Origin: Woeseiaceae bacterium
Lineage (GTDB): Bacteria > Pseudomonadota > Gammaproteobacteria > Steroidobacterales > Woeseiaceae
NCBI GenBank assembly: GCA_028822065.1
Contig: JAPKEL010000002.1
Location: 21,741 to 85,740 of the forward strand
Direction: 5' to 3'
DNA length: 64,000 nucleotides
Below the pieces are notes generated by a model, which was given only the letters and a program-made list of their open reading frames with translations, ran no database searches and had not been told where the DNA came from. A program made the position numbers and the translations under genes. Numbering within the stretch: position 1 is the first letter of the stretch; each line of letters opens with the position of its first letter. Of this stretch, positions 8,332-34,151 are shown piece by piece.

Positions 8332-11067
8332 ATGATAAAAACATTACTCAACATTTTAATTGCTTTCATATTAATTTCACTGCCTGCATTCGCTGATTCA
8401 AAAATTGAAATTAATTATAAAGAATTTCTCTTAGATAACGGTCTAAGACTTATTGTGCACGAAGATAATAAAGCACCAATTGTGGCAGTTAATCTCTGGT
8501 ATCACGTAGGTTCAAAAAATGAGGTCAAGGGGAAAACTGGATTCGCGCATCTATTTGAACATCTAATGTTCAATGGAAGTGAAAATTATAACGATGAATA
8601 CTTCAAGCCTTTTGAACGAGTTGGCGCAACAAATATGAATGGGACAACCTATTTTGATCGCACTAATTATTTTGAAAATGTTCCTAATACCGCCCTAGAT
8701 ATGGCTTTATGGATGGAATCTGACCGCATGGGGCATATGCTGGGCGCCATAACTCAGGAGCGATTGGATGAGCAAAGAGGGGTAGTACAAAATGAAAAAA
8801 GACAGGGAGATAATCAACCTTATGGAATGGTTGAATATCACATATTAGAGGGAATTTTTCCAAGCTCTCATCCATATTCATGGAGCACTATTGGATCAAT
8901 GGCAGATCTTGATGCAGCGAGCTTGGATGATGTTCATGCCTGGTTTAAAAAATATTATGGTCCTAATAATGCGGTTATTGTGATCGCGGGAGATGTTAAT
9001 CCTGAAGATGTTTTTGAAAAAGTGAAAAAATATTTTGGTGATATACCAGCCTCTCCTCCCACTGAAAGAATGATGGAATGGTCCATTAGATTAGATACTG
9101 ATAAACGAGAGATTATAAAAGATGATGTTCCTCAAGTTCGTTTATATAAAGCCTGGGGAGGACCAGCGTTTCGCAACCTCGATTCAGACTTCTTGCAACT
9201 CACAGATATTATCCTAACGTCAGGAAAGACATCACGTTTATACAATCGACTGGTATACAAAGACCAAATCGCAACTGGTGTTAGTTCTTACCAGTTCGCT
9301 GGAGATATTGGAGGATTTTATTATATTCAAACTACTGTTCAACCCAATGGAGATCCTGAGGCAATTAAATTAGCTATCGAAGAAGAATTGACTCGCTTCC
9401 TAAGAGATGGTCCAACAAAAGCAGAATTAAAACGTGCTAAAATGAAATTAAAATCTGGCTTTATCCGAGGGCTTGAGCAAGTAGGTGGCTTTGGAGGTAA
9501 ATCAGATATTCTAGCTCAAAATACTGTTTATGCCGGTAACCCTGGCCACTATAAAAAATCATTAAACGCACTAGATATAGCAAATCCAAAGAAAGTTCTG
9601 GAAACGGCTAGAAATTGGCTAGGAAAAGGATCGTATAATCTAGAAGTACATCCAAAGAAAACATTTAATGCGCTCAGCGAAGGGGCTGATCGATCAAAGG
9701 TTCCAGAAACAACGGAGTTCCCAAAAACCAAATTCGTTGATTTTGAACAAACAATACTACCAAACGGATTAAAACTTACAGTTGCTTATCAACCTAGTAT
9801 TCCAATTGTAAATTTCAATTTACTATTGGATGCGGGTTATGCAGCTGATCAATTCTCAGAGCCTGGAACTTCAAGTCTCGCGATGGCAATGTTGGATGAA
9901 GGCACTACAAAATTAAGCGCTCTTGAAATTAGTGATGCGGCCGCAAATATAGGTGCCATCATTAGTGCAAGTGCTGGAATCGACAGCTCATCAGTTTCTC
10001 TTAATGCCCTTAAAGAAAATTTAGATAATTCACTCAAACTTTATGCCGATGTGATTCTAAATCCCAGTTTTCCGATAAATGAATTAGAGCGCTTAAGAAA
10101 TCAAAGATTAGCGCAAATCCAGCAAGAAAAAAATCAACCTTTTGGAATAGCATTGCGAATTCTTCCTAGACTATTGTATGGGGATGATCATGCTTATTCT
10201 CTTCCTCTCACAGGATCTGGAACCGAAGTTTCCGTAAAAAATATTACTCAAGATTCATTAATTCAATTCCATCAAGATTGGTTTAAACCAAATAATGCCT
10301 CAATGGTTGTGGTTGGTGATATTACCATGAATGAAATCAGACCAAAATTAGAGAAATATTTCAAAAATTGGGTTCCGGGTACTTTGCAACAAAAAAATAT
10401 TACACCAGTAGAGGTCCAAAAAAATGAAACAATTTATCTAATTGATCGGCCCGGAGCTCAACAATCAATCGTTTTAGCCGCTAATATCGCCCCCAGCCCA
10501 GCCAATTCAGATGAGCTTGCTGTTGAATCCATGAACGAAGTCATTGGAGGTTCCTTTACCTCTCGTATTAATATGAATTTACGTGAAGATAAGGGATGGG
10601 CTTATGGGGCTCGAACTCTTATTCTACAAACAAAAGGACAACGCCCATTCATTGCTTATGCGCCAGTTCAAACCGATAAAACAGCTGAATCTATTAGTGA
10701 AATAAAGAGAGAGCTGATTGAATATATTAATGATAATCCAGTATCTGATGAAGAATTGGATAAAGTTAAAGACAATAATACATTAAGTCTTCCCGGTCGC
10801 TGGGAAACCATAAATGCAATATCAAATGACATTAGTGAGATAATTACTTATGGATTGGCTGATAATTATTGGGATCAATACTCAAATAATGTGCGTAATC
10901 TGACACGTAAACGACTTATTAATGCAGCATCTGCAGTTATTAAACCAGAAAATCTTATATGGGTTATTGTGGGTGATCGTGAAGAAATAGAGGAAAAGAT
11001 TAGCAATTTACCAATCAAAGAAATAATAATATTGGATAGAAATGGTCAAGAAATTATTCGACCTTAA
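8332..11067 (+). CDS. Secreted M16 (pitrilysin/insulinase) family zinc peptidase, two-module form
   Basis: 911 aa. Signal peptide MIKTLLNILIAFILISLPAFA. Inverted zinc motif HLFEHLMF (HxxEH). The length fits tandem M16 active and inactive halves. Confidence 0.9.
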   Translation: MIKTLLNILIAFILISLPAFADSKIEINYKEFLLDNGLRLIVHEDNKAPIVAVNLWYHVGSKNEVKGKTGFAHLFEHLMFNGSENYNDEYFKPFERVGATNMNGTTYFDRTNYFENVPNTALDMALWMESDRMGHMLGAITQERLDEQRGVVQNEKRQGDNQPYGMVEYHILEGIFPSSHPYSWSTIGSMADLDAASLDDVHAWFKKYYGPNNAVIVIAGDVNPEDVFEKVKKYFGDIPASPPTERMMEWSIRLDTDKREIIKDDVPQVRLYKAWGGPAFRNLDSDFLQLTDIILTSGKTSRLYNRLVYKDQIATGVSSYQFAGDIGGFYYIQTTVQPNGDPEAIKLAIEEELTRFLRDGPTKAELKRAKMKLKSGFIRGLEQVGGFGGKSDILAQNTVYAGNPGHYKKSLNALDIANPKKVLETARNWLGKGSYNLEVHPKKTFNALSEGADRSKVPETTEFPKTKFVDFEQTILPNGLKLTVAYQPSIPIVNFNLLLDAGYAADQFSEPGTSSLAMAMLDEGTTKLSALEISDAAANIGAIISASAGIDSSSVSLNALKENLDNSLKLYADVILNPSFPINELERLRNQRLAQIQQEKNQPFGIALRILPRLLYGDDHAYSLPLTGSGTEVSVKNITQDSLIQFHQDWFKPNNASMVVVGDITMNEIRPKLEKYFKNWVPGTLQQKNITPVEVQKNETIYLIDRPGAQQSIVLAANIAPSPANSDELAVESMNEVIGGSFTSRINMNLREDKGWAYGARTLILQTKGQRPFIAYAPVQTDKTAESISEIKRELIEYINDNPVSDEELDKVKDNNTLSLPGRWETINAISNDISEIITYGLADNYWDQYSNNVRNLTRKRLINAASAVIKPENLIWVIVGDREEIEEKISNLPIKEIIILDRNGQEIIRP

Positions 11068-20488: not shown

Positions 20489-22939
20489 ATGCCTGAAATC
20501 ATTCTTGATTTATCTTGGTTACTGGCATTTTTATTTCTAGCCTTATATACGACTTACCAAAGAGTTAATCTGCTGTTTTCTACGATTGCCTTCTCAATTC
20601 TGATCTATTGCTATACTGTTTTTGGAGATGGAAGTTTTTTATGGGAATCTTTTCTTTGGGTTATACTTGGGACTCTGGTTACTCTTAATATTACCCCATT
20701 AAGACGCTCAAAGATTACGCGGCCATTGATGGATATTTACCGGAAAATGATCCCAAAAATGTCCAGCACTGAGAAGGAAGCTCTAGAAGCAGGAAATGTT
20801 TGGTGGGATGGTGAATTATTTTCTGGGATGCCAAACTGGGATGTGTTGATGTCCATGCCCAATCCAAAATTGTCTACAGAGGAACAAGCATTTCTGGATG
20901 GACCGTGCGATGAACTTTGCATGATGCTTGATGACTGGGAGATTTCGCATGAAACAGGAAATCTGCCAGAGAATGTTTGGGCTTTCATAAAAACTCATAA
21001 ATTTTTTGCCATGATCATACCCAAAGAATATGGTGGCCTAGAATTCTCATCCTATGCCAATGCCATGGTAATTACTAAATTAGCCAGTAGAAGCGCAGTT
21101 GCATCTTCGACTGTAGGTGTTCCCAATTCACTTGGACCCGCAGAACTCCTTATGCATTATGGTACTGACAAACAAAAACAACGTTATCTTCCAGGACTGG
21201 CCTCAGGAGATGAAATACCTTGCTTTGCCTTAACATCAACGGAAGCAGGATCGGATGCATCAGCTCTAATTGATTCTGGAGTTATTTGTAAAGGTCAGTG
21301 GAATAATAAAGAAATAATAGGTATTCGTTTGAACTGGGATAAAAGATATATAACACTTGCTCCAATTGCGACTGTTCTTGGTTTGGCTTTCAAGCTTTAT
21401 GATCCAGAGCATCTAATTGGTGATAAAGACGAATATGGAATCACAGCTGCATTGATTCCAACCGATACAGCTGGTGTTACTGTCGGTCGTCGTCACTACC
21501 CAATGCAAGTGCCATTTCAGAATGGGCCTACCAGTGGTGAGAATGTTTTTCTGCCGCTTGATTGTATTATCGGTGGCCAAAAAATGGCTGGTAAAGGCTG
21601 GAAAATGTTGGTTGAACTTTTGTCTGTGGGGCGAGCAATAACATTACCATCCAGTGGAGCTGGTGGTGGCCAAGCTGCCGCTTATGCTTCCGGTGCTTAC
21701 ACTCAAATTAGAAAACAATTTAATCTCCCAGTATCCCAATTTGATGGAATTAAGGAGGCGCTAGCTAGAATTGCAGGCAATACTTATATAATGAATGCAG
21801 CAATATCGATTACTTCAGGAGCAATCGATCAGGGCGAAAAACCTGCAGTGCCTTCTGCTATTCTAAAATATCACTGTACAGAATTAGCTCGTAAGGTTGC
21901 GAATGACGCCATGGATGTTCATGGCGGAAAAGCAGTAATGATGGGCCCAAAGAATTACATGGGTCGAGGTTTTATGGCCACACCAATAGCAATTACTGTT
22001 GAAGGCGCCAATATCCTAACGAGAAGTTTGATCATATTCGGACAAGGCGCGATCAGATGTCACCCATTTGTACTAAAAGAATTGCAAGCTGCTGAAGAGA
22101 AAGATACAACTTTGGGTCTTATAAATTTTGATAAAGCGTTATTTTCTCATATTGGCTACGCCATTAGTAACCTATCTAGGTCTTTTATCCTAGCAATAAC
22201 AAATGCCAGATACAGTAAAAGCCCTGTCAACACCAATACAAAACGCTACTATCAACACATTAATAGATACAGCGCTGCTTTTGCTGTGGCCTCAGATTTT
22301 GCGATGCTTTCATTGGGTGGAGAGCTAAAAAAGAAGGAATTACTCTCCGCAAGATTAGGTGATGTTTTAAGTTCGATATATCTTGCCTCAACGGTTCTTA
22401 AGCACTACGAAAATCAAGGATGTAAGCCTGAAGACTTGCCATTAGTTCAGTGGTCAGTAAGAACTCTAATGTATGAAGCACAAGAAAAACTGCATAATTT
22501 TCTAAAAAATCTACCGAACAAAGCGCTGGCTTTTTTCTTACGTTGTTATATCTTCCCGAGAGGTCGTGCTTACTCTCCTCCGCTCGATGAGTTAACAAAT
22601 AAAGTATCTAATATTATTACATCTAGTGGTGAGGCTCGAGAACGACTGAGTGAGTACGCATACACCACAATTGAACCTGGAAATCCTCTTGGTTTACTTC
22701 AAGAGGCTCTTGTATTATCAGAAAAAACAGCATTGATAGAAGCAAAACTTCGACAAGCAAGAAAAGATGGTTTAATAAAAAGTGATTATCTTGGGCATCA
22801 AATTGATGAAGCAGAAAAGCAAAAACTGCTAAATTCTATGGAAATACAACAACTCAAATTACTTCATGAAAAAGTATCTGAATTGTTATCGGTAGATGAT
22901 TTTGATCAAAGTGAAATTGGTCGTAACAAACAAGCATAA
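20489..22939 (+). CDS. fadE: Large membrane-associated acyl-CoA dehydrogenase
   Basis: 816 aa (E. coli FadE is 814 aa). N-terminal hydrophobic helices, an ACAD core (ALTSTEAGSDA, EGANILTRSLIIFGQG) and a long C-terminal extension. Confidence 0.9.
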   Translation: MPEIILDLSWLLAFLFLALYTTYQRVNLLFSTIAFSILIYCYTVFGDGSFLWESFLWVILGTLVTLNITPLRRSKITRPLMDIYRKMIPKMSSTEKEALEAGNVWWDGELFSGMPNWDVLMSMPNPKLSTEEQAFLDGPCDELCMMLDDWEISHETGNLPENVWAFIKTHKFFAMIIPKEYGGLEFSSYANAMVITKLASRSAVASSTVGVPNSLGPAELLMHYGTDKQKQRYLPGLASGDEIPCFALTSTEAGSDASALIDSGVICKGQWNNKEIIGIRLNWDKRYITLAPIATVLGLAFKLYDPEHLIGDKDEYGITAALIPTDTAGVTVGRRHYPMQVPFQNGPTSGENVFLPLDCIIGGQKMAGKGWKMLVELLSVGRAITLPSSGAGGGQAAAYASGAYTQIRKQFNLPVSQFDGIKEALARIAGNTYIMNAAISITSGAIDQGEKPAVPSAILKYHCTELARKVANDAMDVHGGKAVMMGPKNYMGRGFMATPIAITVEGANILTRSLIIFGQGAIRCHPFVLKELQAAEEKDTTLGLINFDKALFSHIGYAISNLSRSFILAITNARYSKSPVNTNTKRYYQHINRYSAAFAVASDFAMLSLGGELKKKELLSARLGDVLSSIYLASTVLKHYENQGCKPEDLPLVQWSVRTLMYEAQEKLHNFLKNLPNKALAFFLRCYIFPRGRAYSPPLDELTNKVSNIITSSGEARERLSEYAYTTIEPGNPLGLLQEALVLSEKTALIEAKLRQARKDGLIKSDYLGHQIDEAEKQKLLNSMEIQQLKLLHEKVSELLSVDDFDQSEIGRNKQA

Positions 22940-22971
22940 TAAAATATAGAAAAAACTGGAGGCAACCATTG

Positions 22972-23448
22972 ATGAACAAAAAATTTATAACTTTACTCTT
23001 GAGCATTCTGCTAGTTGCTGCATGCAATCAAAGCAATAAAAGCAATGAGATAAATGTAATCGAAGAACCTATTTATTCAGTCCCTTCGATTAAAAGAAAC
23101 CCTGCCCCAGAAGGTGCCTCTGTTTATTTTATAAATCCAGAGGCTAACGCCATCGTTTCCACCCCTGTAAAAGTTAAGTTTGGAGTTACAGGTATGGAGA
23201 TTGTTCCCTCAGGTCAAAATACCCCTCATACCGGCCATCATCATATTATAATAAATGCAGACCTTCCTGATATGAATTTCCCAATTCCGGCAGATGAAAA
23301 TTATGTTCATTTTGGTGATGGGAGGTCTGAAACTGAATTAAATCTTGCTCAAGGTGAGCACACGCTGCAATTGATTTTGGGTGATTATCTTCATGTCCCT
23401 CACTCTCCTCCAGTTTACTCAGAAAAAATCATTATCACAGTAGAATAA
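22972..23448 (+). CDS. Lipoprotein with a His-rich motif, DUF4399-like
   Basis: 158 aa from the ATG; the track starts one TTG codon earlier. Lipobox LLVAAC. The HTGHHHIIIN motif recalls DUF4399 proteins. That assignment is from memory and is unverified. Confidence 0.65.
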   Translation: MNKKFITLLLSILLVAACNQSNKSNEINVIEEPIYSVPSIKRNPAPEGASVYFINPEANAIVSTPVKVKFGVTGMEIVPSGQNTPHTGHHHIIINADLPDMNFPIPADENYVHFGDGRSETELNLAQGEHTLQLILGDYLHVPHSPPVYSEKIIITVE

Positions 23449-23484: not shown

Positions 23485-24969
23485 ATGAAAAAAAATCTTG
23501 ACATACCAATCGGAATAAGCGGTATTGCTGCCTATATTCCACCCTATAGAGTATGGCTAAATGATTGGTGTGAATGGACCGGTAATCAATGGCCAAAAAT
23601 AAGGGAAGTGGTTGGGCGTAGCTTTAGATTAAGAGGTAACCAGCATAGTGTTTATACGATGGCAGCTACGGCAGTAATTAGATTAATTGATCAATATGAT
23701 ATTGATCCAAATCGTGTAAAATTTCTTGCTTTAGGAACCGAATCGAGTACCGACAACTCAGCTGGTGCCATTATTATTAAAGGTATGATTAATGAGGCTC
23801 TTTTATCTCGAAACAAATCGCCAATTTCACGCAGTTGTGAGGTGCCTGAATTTAAGCATGCATGTTTAGGGGGTGTCTATGCCATGAAAGGTGCTATTAG
23901 ACACATAGCTTTAGATGGAGCGGGCGATCAAGCGATAGTAGTATGTGCAGATATTGCCGAATACCCCTTAGGAAGTAGCGGCGAACCAACACAAGGTGCT
24001 GGTGCCGTGGCAATGCTGGTTGAAGAAAATCCAAAACTTCTTGAAGTTGATATTATGAATTCTGGATCAGCATCTGATTATCGTATCCTAGATTTCAGAA
24101 AACCAATGATTCGTTTTTGCAGCCAAGAAAGGAAACTCAGCCAACAAGTTCAAGACTTTCCTATATTTAATGGTAAATATTCAACAACTTGCTACTTAGA
24201 TGAAACATTGCATGCTCTGGATGATATGTACAATAAAAGAAAACTTAATCCCATTAGCTATCTCCGTTCACTTAAAACTGTATTTATGCATAGACCTTAT
24301 CGAAAAATGCCAGAAACTGGGCTTGCCATCGCCTACCTATTTGCACTTTCTCGAGGTAATCCTGATGATCGAGCTGAACTTACATCCTATTGCTATGAAG
24401 CAGGAATAGATCCCATTAAAGTCATGCATGAGATGCAAGTATACACTCCGGATATAAAAGACTTAGCTAATCCAATCGATCTCAATAATGAAGCCTATCC
24501 GATGACAATGGCCATATTTCGTATATTTAGAGCCTCGAGACATTATCGTAGAGAAGTTTTAGATAAAATGGCTCTAGGTAGCGATACAATGCTAGATCTT
24601 GGTAATCTCTATACAGCTGCCTTGCCAGCCTGGATAGCAGCTGGATTAGAACAAGCACTCAAGGAAAATATAGATTTGACTGACAATGAAATACTCACCT
24701 TCGGATATGGTAGTGGTGATGCCGCTGAAGTGATTCCTTTTAAAGTTTGCAAGGAATGGAGAAACGCTGCAAAAAATATTCAATTTGCAGAAGCGATGTC
24801 ATTCACAATAGATCTCAATAAAGCGCAATATTTAGATCTTCATACCGGAAAATCTACCAATACATTGAGCTACGAACTAAAGAATGAATTTATTATCGAA
24901 CGTGTCGGAGATTCGGTAGAAAAAAATTATCAAGATATGGGTATCGAATATCATCGCTATATTAAATGA
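23485..24969 (+). CDS. mvaS: Hydroxymethylglutaryl-CoA synthase (long form)
   Basis: 494 aa. HMGS catalytic pattern: GTESSTD (Glu), EFKHACLGG (Cys), VFMHRPYRKM (His), GNLYTAALP and FGYGSG. Confidence 0.85.
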   Translation: MKKNLDIPIGISGIAAYIPPYRVWLNDWCEWTGNQWPKIREVVGRSFRLRGNQHSVYTMAATAVIRLIDQYDIDPNRVKFLALGTESSTDNSAGAIIIKGMINEALLSRNKSPISRSCEVPEFKHACLGGVYAMKGAIRHIALDGAGDQAIVVCADIAEYPLGSSGEPTQGAGAVAMLVEENPKLLEVDIMNSGSASDYRILDFRKPMIRFCSQERKLSQQVQDFPIFNGKYSTTCYLDETLHALDDMYNKRKLNPISYLRSLKTVFMHRPYRKMPETGLAIAYLFALSRGNPDDRAELTSYCYEAGIDPIKVMHEMQVYTPDIKDLANPIDLNNEAYPMTMAIFRIFRASRHYRREVLDKMALGSDTMLDLGNLYTAALPAWIAAGLEQALKENIDLTDNEILTFGYGSGDAAEVIPFKVCKEWRNAAKNIQFAEAMSFTIDLNKAQYLDLHTGKSTNTLSYELKNEFIIERVGDSVEKNYQDMGIEYHRYIK

Positions 24970-24980
24970 TTAGAAAAATT

Positions 24981-25550
24981 TTATAAAAAACTTTCCAATA
25001 ACTTCTTATGTTTCGACTTTAGTTGCTCCCACTCCATAATAAACCATGGTGTACAGACATTCCCTCTTTTTAATAACTTAGGTAAATCTTTTAAATTAAT
25101 AAATTTAAAATCAGCAATTTCATTGTTATTAATATTAATCTTTTGATCTACACTTCCCATGTAAACTGAACATAGTTCATTTTCAGATCCAATATCCTTA
25201 TACATAACAGCATAAGAAAATTTATAAACATACTGTAAATTCGATACGCTAATCCCCAATTCATCATGCAATCTTCTTGTGACTGCCTCCATCAAATTTT
25301 CGCCTTGCCTGGGATGACTGCAACAACTATTCGACCAAAATAAAGGCCATAATCTTTTTGATGCACTCCGCTGTTGTATGAGGAGCTCTCCTCGTGCGTT
25401 AAATAAAAATACTGAAAAAGCTCGATGCAGTCTACCGCCATCTTGATGGCAATCAAATTTGCTCATCGTACCGATTTTATTATCAGACGCATCAACAAGT
25501 ATTAAATCTTCATTATCAAATGAAACTATATAGTCATCTGATTTTTTCAT
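24981..25550 (-). CDS. idi: Isopentenyl-diphosphate delta-isomerase, type 1 (Nudix)
   Basis: 189 aa. LHRAFSVFLFN, WSNSCCSHPRQGE (catalytic Cys region) and RRLHDELG. Its start overlaps the stop of the upstream gene by 4 nt. Confidence 0.9.
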   Translation of the reverse strand: MKKSDDYIVSFDNEDLILVDASDNKIGTMSKFDCHQDGGRLHRAFSVFLFNARGELLIQQRSASKRLWPLFWSNSCCSHPRQGENLMEAVTRRLHDELGISVSNLQYVYKFSYAVMYKDIGSENELCSVYMGSVDQKININNNEIADFKFINLKDLPKLLKRGNVCTPWFIMEWEQLKSKHKKLLESFL

Positions 25551-27808
25551 TTATTTATACCACTGAGATGCGGTGCATGCATTGGGATAATTTTATAGCC
25601 AGCTAATTCAAAAATCTTTGCCATTTCTTTTTCTTTTCCTGGGCAAAGAATGATAATTGACCCTCCACCACCAGAACCAGTAATTTTAGCGCCTAATGCG
25701 CCTTCTGATCTAGCTAAATCTATCATTTCCTCAAGCTCAGCATTTGATACGCCAATAGCATTAAGTAATCCATGTGCTACATTCATTAAAATCCCAAGTT
25801 GTTCGTAATCATGATTTTGTATAGCGTTTAAACCTTTTTTTGATAATTTTCCTAGTTGCTTGAATATATCTTTATAGAGAATTTTATTATTTTCATACCT
25901 CAAATAAACTTCATTCACTATATCGATAGTCCTAGAGGATTTATTACTTAAAGCAATGAGGATGGGAAGTGATTTTATATCTTCAAAATTAAGATTTTTA
26001 ATACCTTCCTTTTTATTATAGAGGATGGGTTGGGCGTAAGAGGCAACCGTATTATCTATGCCAGATGGATTCCCATGGGATATTTTTTCGCATTCAAAAG
26101 CAATATCATTAATTTGTTTATTAGTTGATGGGAGTTTATATAAATCAATAAGCCCTCTTGTAATAGCAACTGCATATGACGCCGAGGCTCCTAAGCCCAT
26201 TGATAAAGGAATGCGAGAAACGATATTGATTTTAAAATTCACTCGATCAATATTTAATAAATTGCATATTTTTTCTACCATCAAAACCATATGAGCATAT
26301 TCAATAGAACATGGGTCAGAAATATTTATTGAACTACCATTAATAACAAAATGACAATCTTCGTCTATCTCTTGCACCTCAACATACACAGCTTCTTCAA
26401 TAGGGAGAGCTATTGCATATTCATTGTAAACGACGGCATGCTCCCCCAATAATATAATTTTTCCTGCAGAAACCCCTACTCCTAGATGCTTTGATTTATC
26501 TTTATTATTCATAAAGCCAGTCTCTGTCAGTTTTTTTGAAGCCAATATTTCTTGTGCTTTCCATGCTTTAATTTCACCGCTTGAAATCATATCATTCACA
26601 ACCTCTGTAAAATATTTCTCTGGAACATCAATACTCGTGGCTACACTTCTTGCGTGTAATTTCATATGACCTTTTTGTATTCCATGAGTCGTTAGAGCTC
26701 TCAATGCAGCTAGATTCTGAGCAAGTCCAACAGAAGCTATAATTATTGCTAATTCATTGGCAGAACTAGCATTTGCAATCTTTAACCCTATCTGAGCAGC
26801 TGGATTTGCCATCAATGAACCACCAACAATCCCAACTTTAATTGGTATTTTTAATTTACCTACCAAATTACCATCAGTATCAACAAGCCACTCAGTTAAT
26901 GATCGATATCTTCCATCATGACAAGCATAAGCATGGGCTGCTGACTCAATTGATCGCCAATCATTTCCCGTGGCAATCGCAACTGCATCAATGCCATTCA
27001 TAATACCTTTATTATGGGTAGCTGCACGATATGGGTCGGCATCTGCAAATTCTGTTGCATTTACTATGCTGTCACGAACTTGCAGCCCATTATAATCATC
27101 TTTAGCTAAATATTTGGGGGGTATTTTTACTTGAACATCAACGAGAGATCGATCAGTCAAATTAGATAATATCTTTAAACCAACTTTACACCCGGTCAAA
27201 TTTACTACATCATCCGCCAAGTATTCACAGACAGTATTTACTAGATTTGCTCCCATTGCATCTCTGGTATCGACCAAGATATGCAATACAATTACTTGCT
27301 CACTTTTTTGCTTTAATATATGAATCTCTATATCCCTGACACCACCACCTCTTTTTTTTAAATTCGGTTGCGATAAATTTGCGATAGTGATTAACATTTG
27401 CTTATTCTGCTCGAGAATATCAACAATTTTCGCTGCATCTTTAATATCAAGGAGTTGAATTTGTCCAATCAATAAAGATTGGTCAATTGAAGCGCTAAAT
27501 CCACCAGACATTCTAATAATTTTTGCAGCGCCACTAACGCCAGCAACTATGGAAGGCTCTTCTGTCACCATCGGAACTATATAATCTTGATTATTAATGA
27601 GAAAGTTAGTCGCAATTGAGAAAGGTAACCCAAAAACGCCTATGACATTTTCACTCATATTATCTGCAATATCCGCAGAGAGAATCTGACTCTCTGACTT
27701 AAGAAGCTTAGTTTCTGCTGGAGTGAGCAAGCCGAGATTAGATAATGCTTCAACTCTCTCGGCAACAGTCATTTTATAAAAGCCGCTAATATTCGAATTA
27801 GTCATCAT
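25547..27808 (-). CDS. Bifunctional class II HMG-CoA reductase (N-terminal) / mevalonate kinase (C-terminal) fusion protein
   Basis: 753-aa uninterrupted ORF. Residues 1-425 carry SENVIGVFGLP, VTEEPSIVAG, DAMGANLVNT, NKGIMNGIDAVAIATGNDWR and GHMKLHAR (class II HMGR). Residues 443-753 carry GKIILLGEHAVVY, PLSMGLGASASYAVA and GAKITGSGGGGS (GHMP kinase motifs I-III, mevalonate kinase type). Confidence 0.88.
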   Translation of the reverse strand: MMTNSNISGFYKMTVAERVEALSNLGLLTPAETKLLKSESQILSADIADNMSENVIGVFGLPFSIATNFLINNQDYIVPMVTEEPSIVAGVSGAAKIIRMSGGFSASIDQSLLIGQIQLLDIKDAAKIVDILEQNKQMLITIANLSQPNLKKRGGGVRDIEIHILKQKSEQVIVLHILVDTRDAMGANLVNTVCEYLADDVVNLTGCKVGLKILSNLTDRSLVDVQVKIPPKYLAKDDYNGLQVRDSIVNATEFADADPYRAATHNKGIMNGIDAVAIATGNDWRSIESAAHAYACHDGRYRSLTEWLVDTDGNLVGKLKIPIKVGIVGGSLMANPAAQIGLKIANASSANELAIIIASVGLAQNLAALRALTTHGIQKGHMKLHARSVATSIDVPEKYFTEVVNDMISSGEIKAWKAQEILASKKLTETGFMNNKDKSKHLGVGVSAGKIILLGEHAVVYNEYAIALPIEEAVYVEVQEIDEDCHFVINGSSINISDPCSIEYAHMVLMVEKICNLLNIDRVNFKINIVSRIPLSMGLGASASYAVAITRGLIDLYKLPSTNKQINDIAFECEKISHGNPSGIDNTVASYAQPILYNKKEGIKNLNFEDIKSLPILIALSNKSSRTIDIVNEVYLRYENNKILYKDIFKQLGKLSKKGLNAIQNHDYEQLGILMNVAHGLLNAIGVSNAELEEMIDLARSEGALGAKITGSGGGGSIIILCPGKEKEMAKIFELAGYKIIPMHAPHLSGINK

Positions 27809-28803
27809 TAAACCTCTAGAGTCAAACCTGCTTTATCTAATTGCAAGTTCAACGATACAAATCCATTCTGATTGGCTGATTTTTCAAAATCATCCAATAA
27901 TCTAACAGATGAAGCGATGCAAATACCAATATCTCCGCCTGCACCACAAGGTTTATAAACTAAGTTGCTCTCCTTTTTTGCCAAATCTACCAATATATTA
28001 TGCTTGTGCCCAAAAATATTTAAATCATACTCCATACTAAACTCCATTAAAGCATCTGTATATTCATCAAGATATTTCAAAAAGAGCTGATTATTTTGAT
28101 CCCAGTTTGAAGCAAATTTAACTGCCATTTTTTTTAAATCCAAGAAACTTTTTTTTGAAAATCCTTTTACTTTAGTTAATTGTCTAGGTGTACTAACAGG
28201 AGTACCACTCCAAAAAATCCTAAATTTTAAATCGTGCGGAAACTCCAAAGAAGAGAGCGCCTTATTTTCCTTACGAAAATATTTAATAATTCCACCTTCT
28301 AAAGAAGTAGCAATATCCACGCCACTCCCATTGACACCTTGAAACTCTCGATGCACCTTTAATGCCAACTCTTTTACTCCAAATGACAATTTAAAGGTCT
28401 TGATAAATGCACTAGCTAACGCAACTGTGAGTGCTGCACTGGATCCGATTCCGTATTTGAGCTTAGTTTCTTTTTCATAAAAACCAGTGGTATCTAAAAT
28501 AAATTCATAATGAAATGAAGGGCAAATATTTACTTCCTGCCACATACACTCAAAAAATATTCTAATGGAGTCGCTTGACTTACCTAAAAGCCACTCTATT
28601 TTTCCATTATTGTTAACAACAAATGGCAATTGCTTGTCCATGAAACCTAAAGTTTTCAATATATGTGTTTTCTTGTCATGCTCTTGTATCGAAACATTCG
28701 CTCTTTTATCAATAGCCATTGAAATTGCAGGAGCGTCTGTCAAAACTGCAAATTCTCCGGCAATTATTATTTTACCCGGCGCACTTACCTTAATAGCCTT
28801 CAT
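27808..28803 (-). CDS. mvaK2: Phosphomevalonate kinase (GHMP family)
   Basis: 331 aa. Motifs: SAPGKIIIAGEFAVL, YGIGSSAALTVALA and KPCGAGGDIGI. There is a 1-nt TAATG overlap with the downstream fusion gene. Confidence 0.85.
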   Translation of the reverse strand: MKAIKVSAPGKIIIAGEFAVLTDAPAISMAIDKRANVSIQEHDKKTHILKTLGFMDKQLPFVVNNNGKIEWLLGKSSDSIRIFFECMWQEVNICPSFHYEFILDTTGFYEKETKLKYGIGSSAALTVALASAFIKTFKLSFGVKELALKVHREFQGVNGSGVDIATSLEGGIIKYFRKENKALSSLEFPHDLKFRIFWSGTPVSTPRQLTKVKGFSKKSFLDLKKMAVKFASNWDQNNQLFLKYLDEYTDALMEFSMEYDLNIFGHKHNILVDLAKKESNLVYKPCGAGGDIGICIASSVRLLDDFEKSANQNGFVSLNLQLDKAGLTLEV

Positions 28804-29774
28804 AAACTGATATCCGAACTAGGGGCTCCACCTAATCCTGATTTCATGATAGAAACGACACCATCTATTTCAGCTAGTCTCTTCTCGATTCGAGCTTCGT
28901 TTTCAGGAAGACAAACCGCCTTTATCTGAGGACCTGCATCCATCGTAAAGAAAACAGATTCGCCACTTTGTTGCAAATCACGAAGGGCATGCATGCAATT
29001 AAGCGTCGCTGCATTCCAGTAAACGACAGATGGTTTAGTAGTCCACATAACCGAATGCATCTTCAAACAATTATGCTCAGAGACTGCCGCCAATTTCTCA
29101 AAATCCTTATTTATCACTGCTAGCCTTGCCTCTTTCATATCAGGCGACTGATTTTCAATCCACGCTGAGTAGAAAGGAGAAGAACGGGAGCTTAAATTCA
29201 TGGCCCGTGAAGAAGAAATACTTTTTTTATTCTTATCAGTGATTGCAATCACAACACTTAATGGCCATCGCTTTGCTTTTGATAATTGCTTTATCTTAAT
29301 AGTATTCGATGTATTTGTAAGTTCAACAATACCACCCATTAAAGATCTTGCTGCAGAACCTGAAATGCTGCCTGCTTGAGCAGCAAATAATTGTATGTCT
29401 GATTTTTTATTAATGGCCATATTTGCAGCAACAACTAATGCTGAAAATGAGGAGGAAGAAGATGCCAGGCCAGCTGATATTGGAAAATTACATTCACTTT
29501 CGATCCTAGCAAAGTCGCGGTTTTTCCCAACAACAAGATCTAAACATTGACTGACACGTGATAAATTTGGCTCATCTTTAACACCATTTATAAGCAGCTC
29601 ATCTCGATTGAAATTAGAGGAAAAACCGACCTTCATATTCGTCCATAAACCACCTAATGTGAGGGACAAGGAATCAACAGCAGGTAAATTTTTTACTGCA
29701 TCTCTCTTACCCCAATATTTGATCAATGCAATATTAGGATGTGATTGAGCTATTGCTTGCATAAAATTATCCAT
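28800..29774 (-). CDS. mvaD: Diphosphomevalonate decarboxylase
   Basis: 324 aa. Motifs: HPNIALIKYWGKRD, SAGLASSSSSFSALV and FFTMDAGPQ. There is a 4-nt overlap with the PMK start. Confidence 0.9.
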   Translation of the reverse strand: MDNFMQAIAQSHPNIALIKYWGKRDAVKNLPAVDSLSLTLGGLWTNMKVGFSSNFNRDELLINGVKDEPNLSRVSQCLDLVVGKNRDFARIESECNFPISAGLASSSSSFSALVVAANMAINKKSDIQLFAAQAGSISGSAARSLMGGIVELTNTSNTIKIKQLSKAKRWPLSVVIAITDKNKKSISSSRAMNLSSRSSPFYSAWIENQSPDMKEARLAVINKDFEKLAAVSEHNCLKMHSVMWTTKPSVVYWNAATLNCMHALRDLQQSGESVFFTMDAGPQIKAVCLPENEARIEKRLAEIDGVVSIMKSGLGGAPSSDISL

Positions 29775-29901
29775 TATTTAAAAATTGCACTGTAAATAAA
29801 TTATACGTGTATTTTAATGCAACTATTTGTGTCATTTTATATCGATATTGTGTTTATATATCCCCTTAACAATATTATTACATCTTACTCAGAGACTTAA
29901 T

Positions 29902-30789
29902 ATGTCAATGAATGCGCCTAACGCAATTAAAAACTATAAAAAACGCATTAATTCACTATTAGATGAAGCACTACCTTTATCTAATAATCTTTCCACATTA
30001 AATGATGCAATGCGTTACGCTGTCATAAATGGTGGTAAGCGTATTCGACCACTTCTCATCTACGGCTCCGGAATGTGCCTAGACATTCAAATAAATAAAC
30101 TTGATATTCCAGCAATTTCAATTGAACTTTTGCATGCATTTTCCCTGGTTCACGATGATCTCCCATCGATGGATAACGATGATTTAAGAAGAGGATTACC
30201 CACTACACACAAAAAATTCTCTGAAGCTACAGCTATTCTTGCGGCAGATGCTCTTCAAATCCTCGCATTTGAAATAATAGCTAACTCTAGACCCTTGAGT
30301 GATCACGAAAAAACTAAGCTAATTTTATTAATTGCAAAAGCTTGCGGATCATCAGGCATGACGGGTGGCCAATCAATTGATTTGGCTTCTGAAGGAAAAA
30401 CTCTAAATAAGTCAGAATTACATGAAATGCATGCAATGAAAACGGGAGCATTAATACACGCCTCTATTATGGCGCCCTTTTATTTGATGGACACCTCCAA
30501 GCATGACACCCAAAAAACAATGAGTGAATATGGATGGACATTGGGACTTGCCTTCCAAATCCGTGATGATTTGCTAGATATCGAAGAAACAACCGAAGTA
30601 ATAGGAAAAACAGCCAACTCAGATATTAAAAATAATAAAGCCACCTGGCCATCACTTTTCGGAGTCAAGGAATCTCATAAGTATTGCGATGAATTATTAG
30701 CGAAATGCTTAGATCATCTAGAGATTTTTAATCATAAAGCTGATCCACTAAGATGGCTCACTAATTACCTAATAAACAGACAGCATTAA
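29902..30789 (+). CDS. ispA: Farnesyl diphosphate synthase ((2E,6E)-FPP synthase)
   Basis: Start moved to the ATG at 29902 (MSMNAPNAIKNYKK...). The track ORF starts at a TTG 25 codons upstream in hydrophobic, non-homologous sequence. FARM motif LVHDDLPSMDNDDLRRG and SARM motif FQIRDDLLD. Confidence 0.9.
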   Translation: MSMNAPNAIKNYKKRINSLLDEALPLSNNLSTLNDAMRYAVINGGKRIRPLLIYGSGMCLDIQINKLDIPAISIELLHAFSLVHDDLPSMDNDDLRRGLPTTHKKFSEATAILAADALQILAFEIIANSRPLSDHEKTKLILLIAKACGSSGMTGGQSIDLASEGKTLNKSELHEMHAMKTGALIHASIMAPFYLMDTSKHDTQKTMSEYGWTLGLAFQIRDDLLDIEETTEVIGKTANSDIKNNKATWPSLFGVKESHKYCDELLAKCLDHLEIFNHKADPLRWLTNYLINRQH

Positions 30790-30809: not shown

Positions 30810-31757
30810 ATGTATGAACAATATTTTGGCCTAGATTCTAAACCATTTACAATAACTCCTGACCCACGTTATTTGTTCATGAGCGACCGTCATACCGAAG
30901 GTTTGGCTCATTTACTTTATGGGGTAACAGACAGCGGGGGGTTCATTCAATTAACCGGGGACGTTGGAACAGGGAAAACAACCCTAATCCGCGCTCTTCT
31001 AGAACAACTGCCAAAAAAAATTGAAATTGCTTTAATTATGCATACGCAAATTTCTGCGCAAGAGTTCTTGCTTGAGATTTGCAATGAACTCAAGGTTAAA
31101 ATAACCGGAACGAGTGTTATTGATATCGTCAATTCACTCAATCAGTATTTGCTAGAACAATATTCGAATGGAAGACGTGTGATTTTATTGGTTGACGAAG
31201 CCCAAAATTTATCAACTGAAGTATTGGAACAACTTCGACTGCTCACAAATCTCGAAACAGCACAGAAAAAACTATTACAAATAATTTTAATTGGACAACC
31301 TGAGTTACGCGATGTATTGGCAAAAAATAATTTAAGTAATTTAGCGCAAAGAATTACGGCTAGATATCATTTACAACCTCTATCAAGATTAGAGACTGGT
31401 TTATACATAGATCATAGGTTGAAAATCTCAGGAGCAACGACTAAAATTTTTGATAAGAAAGCAAAAAAAGAAATCTTTAAATTTTCCTCGGGCATCCCTC
31501 GCTTAATCAATGTTATCTGTGACCGCGCCCTCCTCGGGGCATATGGCATAGGATCAACCGAAATAAATAGAGAGCTTATAATAAAAGCAAATAGAGAAAT
31601 TCAAGGAGAAATTATCCCAGTAAGAATGAAACGATGGCCTCTTTTTGTAGTTTCAATATTAATGCTATCTTTAATCACACTTCTTTTTAATTACAACTAT
31701 TTAGATTTAGACACAATAAACAAAATAATGAAAAAAATTTTTCAAGTAGAGAGTTAA
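30810..31757 (+). CDS. ExeA/GspA-like AAA ATPase, short form without a peptidoglycan-binding domain
   Basis: 315 aa. FGLDSKPFTITPDPRYLFMS, Walker A GDVGTGKTT, Walker B LLVDEAQNL and a C-terminal TM helix WPLFVVSILMLSLITLLF. Confidence 0.8.
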   Translation: MYEQYFGLDSKPFTITPDPRYLFMSDRHTEGLAHLLYGVTDSGGFIQLTGDVGTGKTTLIRALLEQLPKKIEIALIMHTQISAQEFLLEICNELKVKITGTSVIDIVNSLNQYLLEQYSNGRRVILLVDEAQNLSTEVLEQLRLLTNLETAQKKLLQIILIGQPELRDVLAKNNLSNLAQRITARYHLQPLSRLETGLYIDHRLKISGATTKIFDKKAKKEIFKFSSGIPRLINVICDRALLGAYGIGSTEINRELIIKANREIQGEIIPVRMKRWPLFVVSILMLSLITLLFNYNYLDLDTINKIMKKIFQVES

Positions 31758-31758
31758 G

Positions 31759-32319
31759 ATGTCCTTTATCTTAGATGCCTTAAAAAAATCTGAACGCGAG
31801 AGGCAAAAGAAGAGCACGCCAAAAATATCCAGTGTTTTACTGGAGCAAAAAAAGCCCATGAGGCCTAAGTGGCCTCGATTAACAGTCTTTTCGCTACTGA
31901 TAATCATTACTGTGCTTCTAATTGGTATATTTTATCCAAACGCTTTAAGCCTGATTAACAAAAAGCAACAAACTAATATCGATTTAACCCAAGAAAAAAA
32001 GGGGTTTCCAGATATAAAAATAAGTAATCAAAGTCAAAATGTTAGAACAAAAGAAATCATTGAAGCTATGGATAGTAATGAAACAACTGAAATATTTAAT
32101 ATTGACATCGTTAACTCAAAGTACAATCTCTTCTTACCAGAATTACATATTGATATTCATGTCTACAGCGAGATTCCAACTGAACGATTTGTGTTTATAA
32201 ATATGAAAAAATATAATGAAGGCGATATATTGACTGCAGGTCCAGCGCTTGAAACTATAACTGTGGAAGGTGCTATTCTAAGTTTAAACAATATTCTTTT
32301 TCTATTACCTAAAAATTAA
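31759..32319 (+). CDS. GspB/ExeB-like protein
   Basis: 186 aa. The N-terminus MSFILDALKKSERERQ is characteristic of GspB family proteins. One TM helix. The start is 1 nt after the exeA-like stop. Confidence 0.7.
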   Translation: MSFILDALKKSERERQKKSTPKISSVLLEQKKPMRPKWPRLTVFSLLIIITVLLIGIFYPNALSLINKKQQTNIDLTQEKKGFPDIKISNQSQNVRTKEIIEAMDSNETTEIFNIDIVNSKYNLFLPELHIDIHVYSEIPTERFVFINMKKYNEGDILTAGPALETITVEGAILSLNNILFLLPKN

Positions 32320-32327
32320 GTAATTAC

Positions 32328-34151
32328 TTGGCTTCTATGCAAACCAATACCCTTTCTTACATTAATGGCAATGTATTTGCAAAAGCGTTGCAATCAGGTA
32401 TTTATAAAGTCATTAAATCCCAGGAAAATTTAAATTCAATTAATGTTTTCCCAGTCGCTGATGCTGACACAGGGACAAATCTTTGTCTCTCTCTCGGCCC
32501 ACTGATTGGTGTCATTGAGAGTAAAAAAAATCACCACTTAGGTACCTTACTTGAGGAGCTTGCCGATAAACTACTCGATAACTCACGAGGTAATTCAGGT
32601 AGTATCATCGCTCAATTCTTTCAAGGAATGAGTGAGAATGCTAATAATAAAAGTGAATTCTCACCGAAGGATTTCTCAAAATCAATCAAACTAGGAAGCG
32701 AATATGCTAAAGATGCATTGTCAAAACCGATTGAAGGAACCATTATTACCGTTATTTCGAGATTTGCAGAAAATTTTTCTAATGAAATCGAAAATAATCC
32801 TGATAAAGACTTTTTAACCATATATAACGTGGTTCTTCCGTTATTAAAAGCAGCCGTCACTGAAACAAAAAATCAATTGGATGTCTTAAAAAAAGCCAAT
32901 GTAGTGGATGCTGGAGCCAAGGGTTTTTACCTCCTAATGAAAGGCTTTATTAATCACCTTGTTTTAGGAGAAGTGGAGTCGAAGCCAAATGAATCAATTG
33001 CCTCATATACTGAATCGGAAATAAACTTCAATGAAGCACTAAACCCAACAAACTATCAATATTGTACAGAATGCATTATCAAAGGAGTAGACATTGATAG
33101 AAGGAAACTAAGAGAGGCTTTAACCAAGTATGGCGATTCTATTGTGATTGCAGGAACAAAGCAAAAAGCAAAAATTCATATCCATACCGACGAGCCTAAC
33201 ACTATCTTCAATTATGTAAAAAAATATGGCGAGACTTCTTCAGAAAAAGCCGATGACATGTTTCTACAACAGAAAATCAGCAGTAACACCACTAATAAAT
33301 TTGCTGTCATTACCGATTCTGCAGCTGACATAAGTGATGAAGATATTGAAAATCTGGATATTCATATTGTTCCAATCCGAATTCAATTTGGAGAAAAAGG
33401 ATACTTAGATAAAGTAAGTATAACCCCAAAAGAATTTTTCGAAGAGCTTAAAAATAATCCTACCCACCCAACAACATCACAACCATCAATAGGTGATTTA
33501 AGGAGGCAATATCAATACTTAGCCAGTCATTTTACAAATGTTATTTCAATAAATATCTCTAATAAGATCAGTGGAACTTACGATGCAGCTAAATTAGCTT
33601 CAAAGAAAATTACAGCATCTGGGAAGATCCATATTTTTAATTCTCTGAATGCATCTCTTGGTCAAGGACAAATTACTGTAGTGGCAGCTCAATGCGCGAA
33701 AGCAGGAATGGATATCCAAGAAACACTAAATACTTTAAAAGAAATAAGAACACACACCAAAACATATGGAATTACTCCAAGTTTGCAATATGCAGTTCGA
33801 GGTGGTCGTGTCCCAAATTCAATAAAATTGATTGCAGAAATAATGCGACTAACGCCAATTTTACAAACAACTCCAGACGGAAATATAAAAACTAAACATT
33901 TCTTATTTGGCAAAAAAGATGTGTTAAGAAAATTTTCAAAATTTATAAGTAAGCGCCACAATAAAGACAAAAAATTCACAATATCAATAGGCCATGCTTG
34001 TGCTTTAGATAAAGCTGAATTACTAAAATCTTATTTTACGCTTGATCTCCCAGAAGCTGCTGAATGTAAAATAACAGAACTTGGTTCTGCTATCGGCGTT
34101 CATGTGGGGCTAGGAGCTATTATGATAGGAATCCAAACTCAGCCTGATTAA
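32328..34151 (+). CDS. Dak2 (FakA-like kinase) domain fused to a DegV (FakB-like fatty-acid-binding) domain
   Basis: 607 aa, with a TTG at 32328 or an ATG at 32337. N-terminal motifs: NVFPVADADTGTN, NSRGNSGSI and VVDAGAKGF. Central motifs: YCTECIIKG...GDSIVIAGTKQKAKIHIHT. C-terminal part from residue 324: FAVITDSAADISDEDI, TSQPS and ISGTY (DegV). Confidence 0.82.
   Translation: MASMQTNTLSYINGNVFAKALQSGIYKVIKSQENLNSINVFPVADADTGTNLCLSLGPLIGVIESKKNHHLGTLLEELADKLLDNSRGNSGSIIAQFFQGMSENANNKSEFSPKDFSKSIKLGSEYAKDALSKPIEGTIITVISRFAENFSNEIENNPDKDFLTIYNVVLPLLKAAVTETKNQLDVLKKANVVDAGAKGFYLLMKGFINHLVLGEVESKPNESIASYTESEINFNEALNPTNYQYCTECIIKGVDIDRRKLREALTKYGDSIVIAGTKQKAKIHIHTDEPNTIFNYVKKYGETSSEKADDMFLQQKISSNTTNKFAVITDSAADISDEDIENLDIHIVPIRIQFGEKGYLDKVSITPKEFFEELKNNPTHPTTSQPSIGDLRRQYQYLASHFTNVISINISNKISGTYDAAKLASKKITASGKIHIFNSLNASLGQGQITVVAAQCAKAGMDIQETLNTLKEIRTHTKTYGITPSLQYAVRGGRVPNSIKLIAEIMRLTPILQTTPDGNIKTKHFLFGKKDVLRKFSKFISKRHNKDKKFTISIGHACALDKAELLKSYFTLDLPEAAECKITELGSAIGVHVGLGAIMIGIQTQPD

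Follow-up and report, generated by a model that had tools for sequence, protein, structure and literature searches.

A vertically inherited mevalonate-pathway locus with a fused HMG-CoA reductase and mevalonate kinase in the gammaproteobacterial family Woeseiaceae

The stretch of DNA analysed here, 64,000 nt in length and hereafter called the window, lies on contig JAPKEL010000002.1 of a Woeseiaceae bacterium (Gammaproteobacteria; assembly GCA_028822065.1), and carries at positions 23485-30789 a cluster of six genes for the mevalonate (MVA) pathway of isoprenoid biosynthesis. We consider it very probable that the classical MVA pathway is the only route of this organism to isopentenyl diphosphate (IPP) and dimethylallyl diphosphate (DMAPP), that it is encoded by one locus inherited vertically throughout the family, and that the ancestors of the family replaced the methylerythritol phosphate (MEP) pathway with it. 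Coordinates are positions in the window unless another contig is named.

Gene content and enzymes of the locus

Protein families were called against Pfam and NCBIfam profiles, using the curated cut-offs of NCBIfam. The features of the locus are as follows.

[quoted passage not shown]
24981-25550, minus strand: type 1 (Nudix) isopentenyl diphosphate isomerase (IDI), 189 aa, NF002995 at 177 bits against a cut-off of 127; last gene of the operon
25547-27808, minus strand: fusion of a class II HMG-CoA reductase (HMGR) with a mevalonate kinase (MVK) in a single open reading frame (ORF), 753 aa, TIGR00532 and TIGR00549
27808-28803, minus strand: GHMP kinase resembling phosphomevalonate kinase (PMK), 331 aa; best NCBIfam match TIGR01220, below its threshold
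28800-29774, minus strand: mevalonate diphosphate decarboxylase (MVD), 324 aa, TIGR01240 at 245 bits against 171; first gene of the operon
29775-29901, no strand: divergent intergenic region between MVD and ispA, 127 bp, AT-rich
29902-30789, plus strand: ispA, farnesyl diphosphate (FPP) synthase, NF045485 at 318 bits against 275, PF00348; divergent from the operon
20489-23448, plus strand: left flank with fadE and a gene for a DUF4399 protein, host markers outside the pathway
30810-34151, plus strand: right flank with an ExeA-like AAA ATPase, a GspB-like protein, and a FakA-DegV fusion (Pfam and NCBIfam matches)

An earlier reading made from the sequence alone (the sequence-only reading) had described a six-gene module leading from acetoacetyl-CoA to FPP, and both the ORF list and the profile matches agreed with this description. 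The coordinates given for HMGS and the four minus-strand genes were all reproduced, and the minus-strand ORFs overlap by 4 nt (MVD and PMK), 1 nt (PMK and the fusion), and 4 nt (the fusion and IDI). The frame of ispA opens at a TTG at 29827, and the ATG at 29902 gives a protein of 295 aa, which agrees with the gene calls of 293-295 aa on other contigs; its translation contains the two DDxxD motifs. As the same reading had remarked, ispA is not followed by dxs, its 3' neighbour being the exeA-like gene, and the isomerase is the Nudix type 1 enzyme, with NF002995 above its cut-off. The latter also matched TIGR02150 (155 bits) and retained the Cys of the NSxCxHP motif and the Glu of the ExE motif when aligned to the Salmonella and E. 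coli IDI structures. The gammaproteobacterial appearance of the backbone was likewise borne out by the identification of fadE, mdh, gshA (TIGR01434), polA, engB, and genes for a di-haem cytochrome c and a DsbA-like protein.

A scan of the cluster for consensus promoters and for terminators gave match counts at or below chance. Both promoters are presumably located in the 127-bp region between MVD and ispA, and the operon and ispA may be co-regulated from this common intergenic region. HMGS and IDI converge with their stop codons only 11 nt apart (24970-24980), so that a shared intrinsic terminator would not fit between them.

In the pathway that we propose, a thiolase encoded elsewhere would supply acetoacetyl-CoA, from which the plus-strand HMGS would form HMG-CoA. 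The translationally coupled operon MVD-PMK-(HMGR-MVK)-IDI would then carry out the following steps: the reduction of HMG-CoA and the phosphorylation of mevalonate on one polypeptide, the second phosphorylation by PMK, the decarboxylation to IPP by MVD, and the isomerization to DMAPP by IDI. The divergently transcribed IspA would condense IPP and DMAPP to FPP, from which quinones, undecaprenyl phosphate, and further products would derive.

The sequence-only reading had named the loss of catalytic residues as a ground for doubting function. When the pathway enzymes were aligned, the residues were retained. In HMGS, Glu86, Cys127, His269, Asn374, and Ser410 were invariant in an alignment of 10 orthologues from Woeseiaceae, Salinisphaera, Cryobacterium, and others; compared with the Gram-positive enzymes, the protein has about 100 additional residues. 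An AlphaFold (AF2) model of HMGS had a mean confidence (pLDDT) of 78.9 and a predicted template modelling score (pTM) of 0.84; the top matches in a fold search of the PDB with this model were all HMG-CoA synthases, the best being Myxococcus MvaS (5hwp; TM score 0.80, target-normalised).

The fusion consists of an HMGR domain (aa ~1-425), a short linker, and an MVK domain (aa ~445-745). The HMGR half scored 384 bits on TIGR00532 against a cut-off of 260 and aligned end to end with the HMGR of Pseudomonas mevalonii (1qax), with the EEPS, HNKGIMNG, GNDWR, and GHMKLHAR blocks retained; these are the blocks in which the P. mevalonii enzyme has its catalytic residues Glu83, Lys267, Asp283, and His381. 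The MVK half scored 247 bits on TIGR00549 against 163, matched MVK structures at ~1e-35, and carries the three GHMP motifs, with GKIILLGEHAVV, GLGASAS, SGID, and TGSGGGG in the translation. In MVD, the motifs YWGKRD, GLASSSS, GSAARS, and DAGP (catalytic Asp) were retained, the motifs of the catalytic Asp, Ser, and Arg among them. No internal stops occurred in the fusions of relatives. The enzymes thus described look intact, and their activities are predicted from these sequence features; channelling by the fusion and the cofactor of its reductase are likewise predictions.

Loss of the MEP pathway and inheritance of the locus

The genome containing the window is a metagenome-assembled genome (MAG) of 1.96 Mb in 104 contigs, with an estimated completeness of 93.65% and an estimated contamination of 1.7%. 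A genome-wide search for dxs, dxr, and ispDEFGH, as the sequence-only reading had proposed, found none of the seven genes. For dxs, dxr, ispG, and ispH, which were absent from the genome, the identical searches were positive in 9-13 control genomes each. E. coli IspD, IspE, and IspF gave no tblastn match in the genome at E<=0.01, and the positive controls Prs (60% identity) and even LolB (20%) were recovered in the same genome; a profile hidden Markov model (HMM) search of the genome for ispE also found nothing. The remark that no thiolase is present in the cluster held, and the proposed search for an acetoacetyl-CoA thiolase elsewhere yielded two copies above the TIGR01930 cut-off on other contigs (C4:19755-20912 and C23:50773-52017).

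The 104 contigs and the estimated contamination of 1.7% might raise the suspicion of an assembly or binning artefact, with the contig derived from another organism in the metagenome. However, the cluster is internal to a contig of >85 kb with native tetranucleotide usage, the identical fusion protein recurs, among the same neighbours, on 13 independent contigs that come from several separate samples, and the same locus was found in six other genomes of the genus. We regard the probability of such an artefact as negligible.

Subsequently, the two pathways were compared over 61 genomes of the order, comprising the window's own genome, 9 congeners, 27 other genomes of the family, and 24 genomes from other families. 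The fusion, marking the MVA pathway, was found in 50 of them and nine were of the MEP type, with zero overlap; the two remaining genomes, both incomplete, showed neither pathway. ispH occurred only in eight genomes, all without the fusion, and ispE was above the cut-off only in those eight and in a ninth genome without the fusion (G060). The family has lost the MEP pathway, and the MVA and MEP pathways are mutually exclusive in the order. Furthermore, the arrangement lolB-ispE-prs was observed in all nine MEP-type genomes of the order. In the genome studied here, outside the window, lolB (C4:8625-9200) is followed by tRNA-Gln(ttg) (9282-9356) and prs (9409-10383), and ispE is missing between them. 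This lolB-tRNA-Gln-prs junction is a precise ispE deletion scar, and the ancestor therefore used the MEP pathway.

The sequence-only reading had taken the six genes for an island in a gammaproteobacterial-type backbone, and we examined whether they could be a recently acquired genomic island, horizontally transferred into an MEP-type chromosome. The MVA pathway is indeed a minority route in the class: among 400 gammaproteobacterial genomes drawn evenly over ~260 families (401 in the ispH search), ispH was present in 307 of 401 and a class II HMGR homologue in 43 of 400. In the fusion tree, moreover, the gammaproteobacterial fusions have those of Calditrichota, Acidobacteria, Balneolaceae, Myxococcales, and Cryobacterium nested among them, so that the operon has clearly crossed between phyla at some remote time. 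The composition of the cluster is native, however, and the comparison of GC at third codon positions (GC3) and tetranucleotide usage that had been suggested revealed no foreign signal. The GC content was 0.362 against 0.375 +/- 0.018 for 7.3-kb windows of the genome (28th percentile), the tetranucleotide distance was at the 65th percentile of 218 genome windows, and the GC3 of 0.25-0.30 equalled that of the flanks. The 64-kb window contains no tRNA, and the flanking genes scanned included neither an integrase nor a transposase; flanking direct repeats were not searched for.

The distribution of the locus also follows the kinship of its hosts. The fusion was present in 7 of the 9 congeners (the two misses being 65% and 84% complete), in all 27 other genomes of the family, and in 15 of the 24 genomes from the other families of the order, and its identity dropped with kinship from 54-77% in the genus to 41-52% in the family and 41-49% in the order. 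The gene order fadE-(DUF4399)-HMGS / IDI-fusion-PMK-MVD / ispA-exeA-gspB-fakAB was kept, flanks included, at all 15 loci compared (6 from congeners and 9 from the rest of the family), with single genes missing at some, although the GC content of these loci ranged from 0.34 to 0.70. In relatives, the PMK-like gene is always placed between MVD and the fusion and was retained in most fusion loci examined, and ispA adjoins the operon in all family members examined except one (G020), at whose locus tblastn detected no ispA. The other families of the order had the operon core at most, with HMGS or ispA nearby in two cases and the flanks in none. Five MAGs labelled Woeseiaceae at NCBI share the layout, and no other named taxon among the public loci does so. 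In the fusion tree, the labelled MAGs interleave with the genomes of the same family, and one of them (L019) is nearly identical to a genome of our sample (G011). In each of the six gene trees (fusion, HMGS, MVD, PMK, IDI, and ispA), the genus was monophyletic (support 98-100) and nested in the family; incongruence was confined to the phylum level, pointing to ancient transfers.

The whole locus is vertically inherited throughout Woeseiaceae. The island interpretation is rejected at the level of genus and family because of the native composition, the family-wide synteny of cluster and flanks, and the host-congruent gene trees; with the MEP pathway gone from the whole family as well, we consider a recent acquisition highly improbable. 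The sequence-only reading had itself allowed for a known vertical trait, coupled to a complete MEP pathway elsewhere. The gene trees do make the locus a vertical trait, and no complete MEP pathway accompanies it.

The genus of the window differs in several respects from its relatives. Its genomes are 1.1-2.0 Mb in size with 34-37% GC at the locus, and those of the rest of the family are 2.0-5.9 Mb (mostly 3-6 Mb) with 52-70% GC. In the fusion tree, the stem of the genus is long (0.53 substitutions per site), and its locus lacks ~1.2-1.7 kb that family members carry between ispA and exeA and between fadE and DUF4399/HMGS. It looks like a genome-reduced, AT-shifted branch of the family in which the locus was kept intact and compacted.

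The genes directly 3' of ispA (30810-32319, plus strand), for the ExeA-like ATPase and the GspB-like protein, are syntenic family-wide. The ATPase also scored 293 bits on a model of XrtA/PEP-CTERM-associated ATPases, just under the cut-off of 324.5. The gene at 32328-34151 (plus strand) encodes a single protein of 607 aa that combines a FakA-like (Dak2) kinase with a fatty-acid-binding domain of the DegV (FakB-like) type and that was found at the same position across the family with 42-79% identity.

The route from mevalonate to IPP

The sequence data were also considered in the light of an alternative route of the Chloroflexi or haloarchaeal type, in which the decarboxylase would use mevalonate 5-phosphate and the PMK-like protein would have another role or would phosphorylate isopentenyl phosphate. 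The Chloroflexi pathway (MVK, phosphomevalonate decarboxylase, and isopentenyl phosphate kinase (IPK)) resembles the present one in that the solved decarboxylases closest to that of the window are from Anaerolinea (6n0z and 6n0x, 188 bits, against 166 bits for the Staphylococcus aureus enzyme), 6n0x being the phosphomevalonate decarboxylase of Anaerolinea thermophila (PMC9254496). The HMGR domain is also ~50% identical to Anaerolineae HMGRs, and the PMK-like protein is under every curated PMK cut-off. In contrast, the Chloroflexi HMGR genes are stand-alone and unclustered, whereas the genome studied here has a PMK-like gene and no IPK: its only four AA_kinase genes encode a ThrA-like aspartokinase, ProB, ArgB, and PyrH, and IPK is therefore absent. 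The decarboxylase passed TIGR01240 at 245 bits, whereas the phosphomevalonate decarboxylase model NF040704 gave only 117 bits against a cut-off of 475. In addition, the GHMP kinase, which most fusion loci examined have retained, aligned full length with the mvaK2-position gene of Bacillaceae and with Listeria Lin0012.

The classical route is favoured because an mvaK2-like kinase adjoins the decarboxylase, TIGR01240 was passed, and the genome lacks IPK; the alternative route is hence unlikely. Provided that the pathway is functional, we hold the classical order, PMK followed by diphosphomevalonate decarboxylase (DMD), to be highly probable. The decarboxylase would then act on mevalonate 5-diphosphate, as the absence of IPK also favours.

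The GHMP kinase at 27808-28803 is, judging from its sequence, most likely a phosphomevalonate kinase of the mvaK2 type. Its best structure match was 3k17, the Listeria protein Lin0012, and along its entire length it shares 27% identity with the gene that follows MVD, in the mvaK2 position, in the MVA operons of Virgibacillus and Oceanobacillus (Bacillaceae). It is also the fastest-evolving gene of the cluster. Within the genus, the PMK-like protein was 41% identical, against 74-76% for HMGS; for the family and order, the corresponding values were 24-39% and 55-72%.

Several observations weigh against the conclusion that a classical, family-wide MVA pathway is the sole route to IPP. The nearest solved decarboxylase is the phosphomevalonate decarboxylase 6n0z rather than the S. 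aureus DMD, although the gap in bit score is small. HMGS is below every NCBIfam HMGS cut-off (164 against 360 bits), and the PMK-like protein reached 78.5 bits on TIGR01220, whose cut-off is 165.7, and scored only slightly lower on MVK models. Because the genome is a 93.7%-complete MAG in 104 contigs, the absence claims lean on seven independent misses of MEP genes and on 36 relatives from which these genes are likewise absent. Finally, the family name rests on submitter labels of public MAGs nested among the same-family genomes, not on a marker-gene phylogeny.

A catabolic module was also considered, in which the reductase, like that of P. mevalonii, would support growth by oxidising mevalonate. 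The P. mevalonii enzyme is the closest structure to the HMGR half, TIGR00532 bears the title 'degradative', and public records use the same name. TIGR00532 as a whole covers the class II enzymes, however, biosynthetic ones included. The reductase is fused to MVK, coupled to PMK, MVD, and IDI, and adjoins HMGS and ispA; the cluster lacks an HMG-CoA lyase, and the genome has no other source of IPP. A catabolic role is thus extremely unlikely, and we retain the biosynthetic classical pathway.

Distribution, known systems, and significance

In the class sample, 11 of the 43 class II HMGR homologues were full-length HMGR-MVK fusions. Of the 401 genomes, 94 had no ispH, and ispH occurred together with HMGR in only six (G163, G187, G310, G352, G358, and G366). 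Among 17 named genomes carrying the fusion, 15 were without ispH, and Dokdonella (G065) and Chiayiivirga (G072) had both. These two and the six genomes of the class sample are candidates for dual-pathway or transitional states. The statement of the sequence-only reading that the MVA route is known in the class only from scattered lineages such as Legionellales was therefore too narrow, in view of the 43 homologues in 400 genomes and of a survey that lists gamma-Proteobacteria as main holders (PMC6107057).

About 57 of the 400 genomes of the class sample had neither ispH nor a class II HMGR match, many of them being 1.5-2.2 Mb in size and >95% complete; reductases of class I type, or some different arrangement, may serve in these genomes. 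Two genomes of another family (G256 and G416; family f203) carry a more distant full-length HMGR-MVK fusion of ~720 aa with 35-36% identity, which may represent an independent fusion event.

In the protein database, at least 8000 clusters were related to the fusion at E<=1e-50, and the top 120 all had the three-domain architecture. Fusions of 745-770 aa are named 'hydroxymethylglutaryl-CoA reductase, degradative' at NCBI or 'hydroxymethylglutaryl-CoA reductase' at the Joint Genome Institute (JGI), the kinase half being unnamed in both. The label 'degradative' is misleading for the fusion.

The locus shares with the MVA genes of Gram-positive cocci and Bacillaceae (mvaS, mvaA or mvaE, mvaK1-mvaD-mvaK2, and fni) the same six predicted chemical steps, a class II HMGR, a GHMP-type MVK, a probable PMK, and MVD, and the clustering and presumed co-transcription of the genes. 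In two Bacillaceae loci (L065 and L080), HMGR, MVK, MVD, and PMK are adjacent and 27-49% identical to the proteins of the window. Unlike in those systems, HMGR and MVK here form one polypeptide, the gene order is MVD-PMK-(HMGR-MVK)-IDI, and the isomerase is of type 1 (Nudix), whereas theirs is of type 2 (fni). HMGS here is long (~490 aa), divergent, and closest to Myxococcus MvaS, ispA belongs to the locus, and the host is a gammaproteobacterium that lost the MEP pathway.

The MvaE of Enterococcus faecalis is likewise a naturally fused protein in which a class II HMGR is joined to another enzyme of the same pathway (table in PMC13001223). Its partner is, however, acetoacetyl-CoA thiolase, which acts two steps upstream and is N-terminal, whereas the partner here is the next enzyme, mevalonate kinase, and is C-terminal. 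Legionella and Coxiella resemble the present host as Gammaproteobacteria relying on MVA genes, and, as would happen here, their PMK and HMGS are missed by surveys based on HMMs or on KEGG orthology (KO), which a 2026 review in the Journal of Bacteriology illustrates with the divergent enzymes of Legionella (PMC13001223). The genes of Legionella belong to a different lineage: its mevalonate diphosphate decarboxylase (MDD; 3lto) scored only 83 bits against the MVD of the window, whereas the Firmicute and Chloroflexi enzymes scored 166-188 bits. An origin of the locus from Legionellales was rejected, no member of that order being among the 80 best fusion loci and the similarity to the Legionella MDD being weak.

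Hoshino and Gaucher (2018, PMC6107057) named gamma-Proteobacteria as one of the chief bacterial groups carrying MVA genes and described the genes as clustered and 'transmitted in bacteria as a syntenic set'. In that paper, fused partners were trimmed off and the HMGR-MVK fusion was not described, and a term search of its text found no mention of Woeseiaceae or of a family-wide replacement of the MEP pathway. In the literature searched, no relevant paper on Woeseia and mevalonate was found apart from an unrelated sponge survey, nor any description of a natural HMGR-MVK fusion. Gammaproteobacterial MVA clusters are thus already known; what seems undescribed is the replacement at the scale of a family or order with strict exclusion, the scar at the ispE site, and the incompletely annotated HMGR-MVK fusion. 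More tentatively, Woeseiaceae and about two thirds of the sampled families of its order might have exchanged the MEP pathway wholesale for a conserved fusion-centred operon, a swap at the scale of the order that has not been described, with the fusion forming a new bifunctional family that passes mevalonate between its active sites. We regard this wider proposal as possible, but do not yet call it probable.

Woeseiaceae are reported to rank with the most abundant families of bacteria in marine sediments. With HMGS and PMK below threshold and the fusion named as a 'degradative' reductase, automated surveys would score the lineage as having no complete isoprenoid pathway, which is how Legionella was scored in the 2026 review (PMC13001223). 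An abundant sediment family depending on the MVA pathway would be intrinsically insensitive to MEP inhibitors of the fosmidomycin type, and the isotope signatures of its isoprenoids would differ from those of MEP users. The HMGR-MVK fusion offers a natural two-step module for mevalonate-pathway engineering. The order, in which MVA and MEP families stand side by side and a deletion scar is preserved, constitutes a natural experiment that allows the swap of an essential pathway to be dated.

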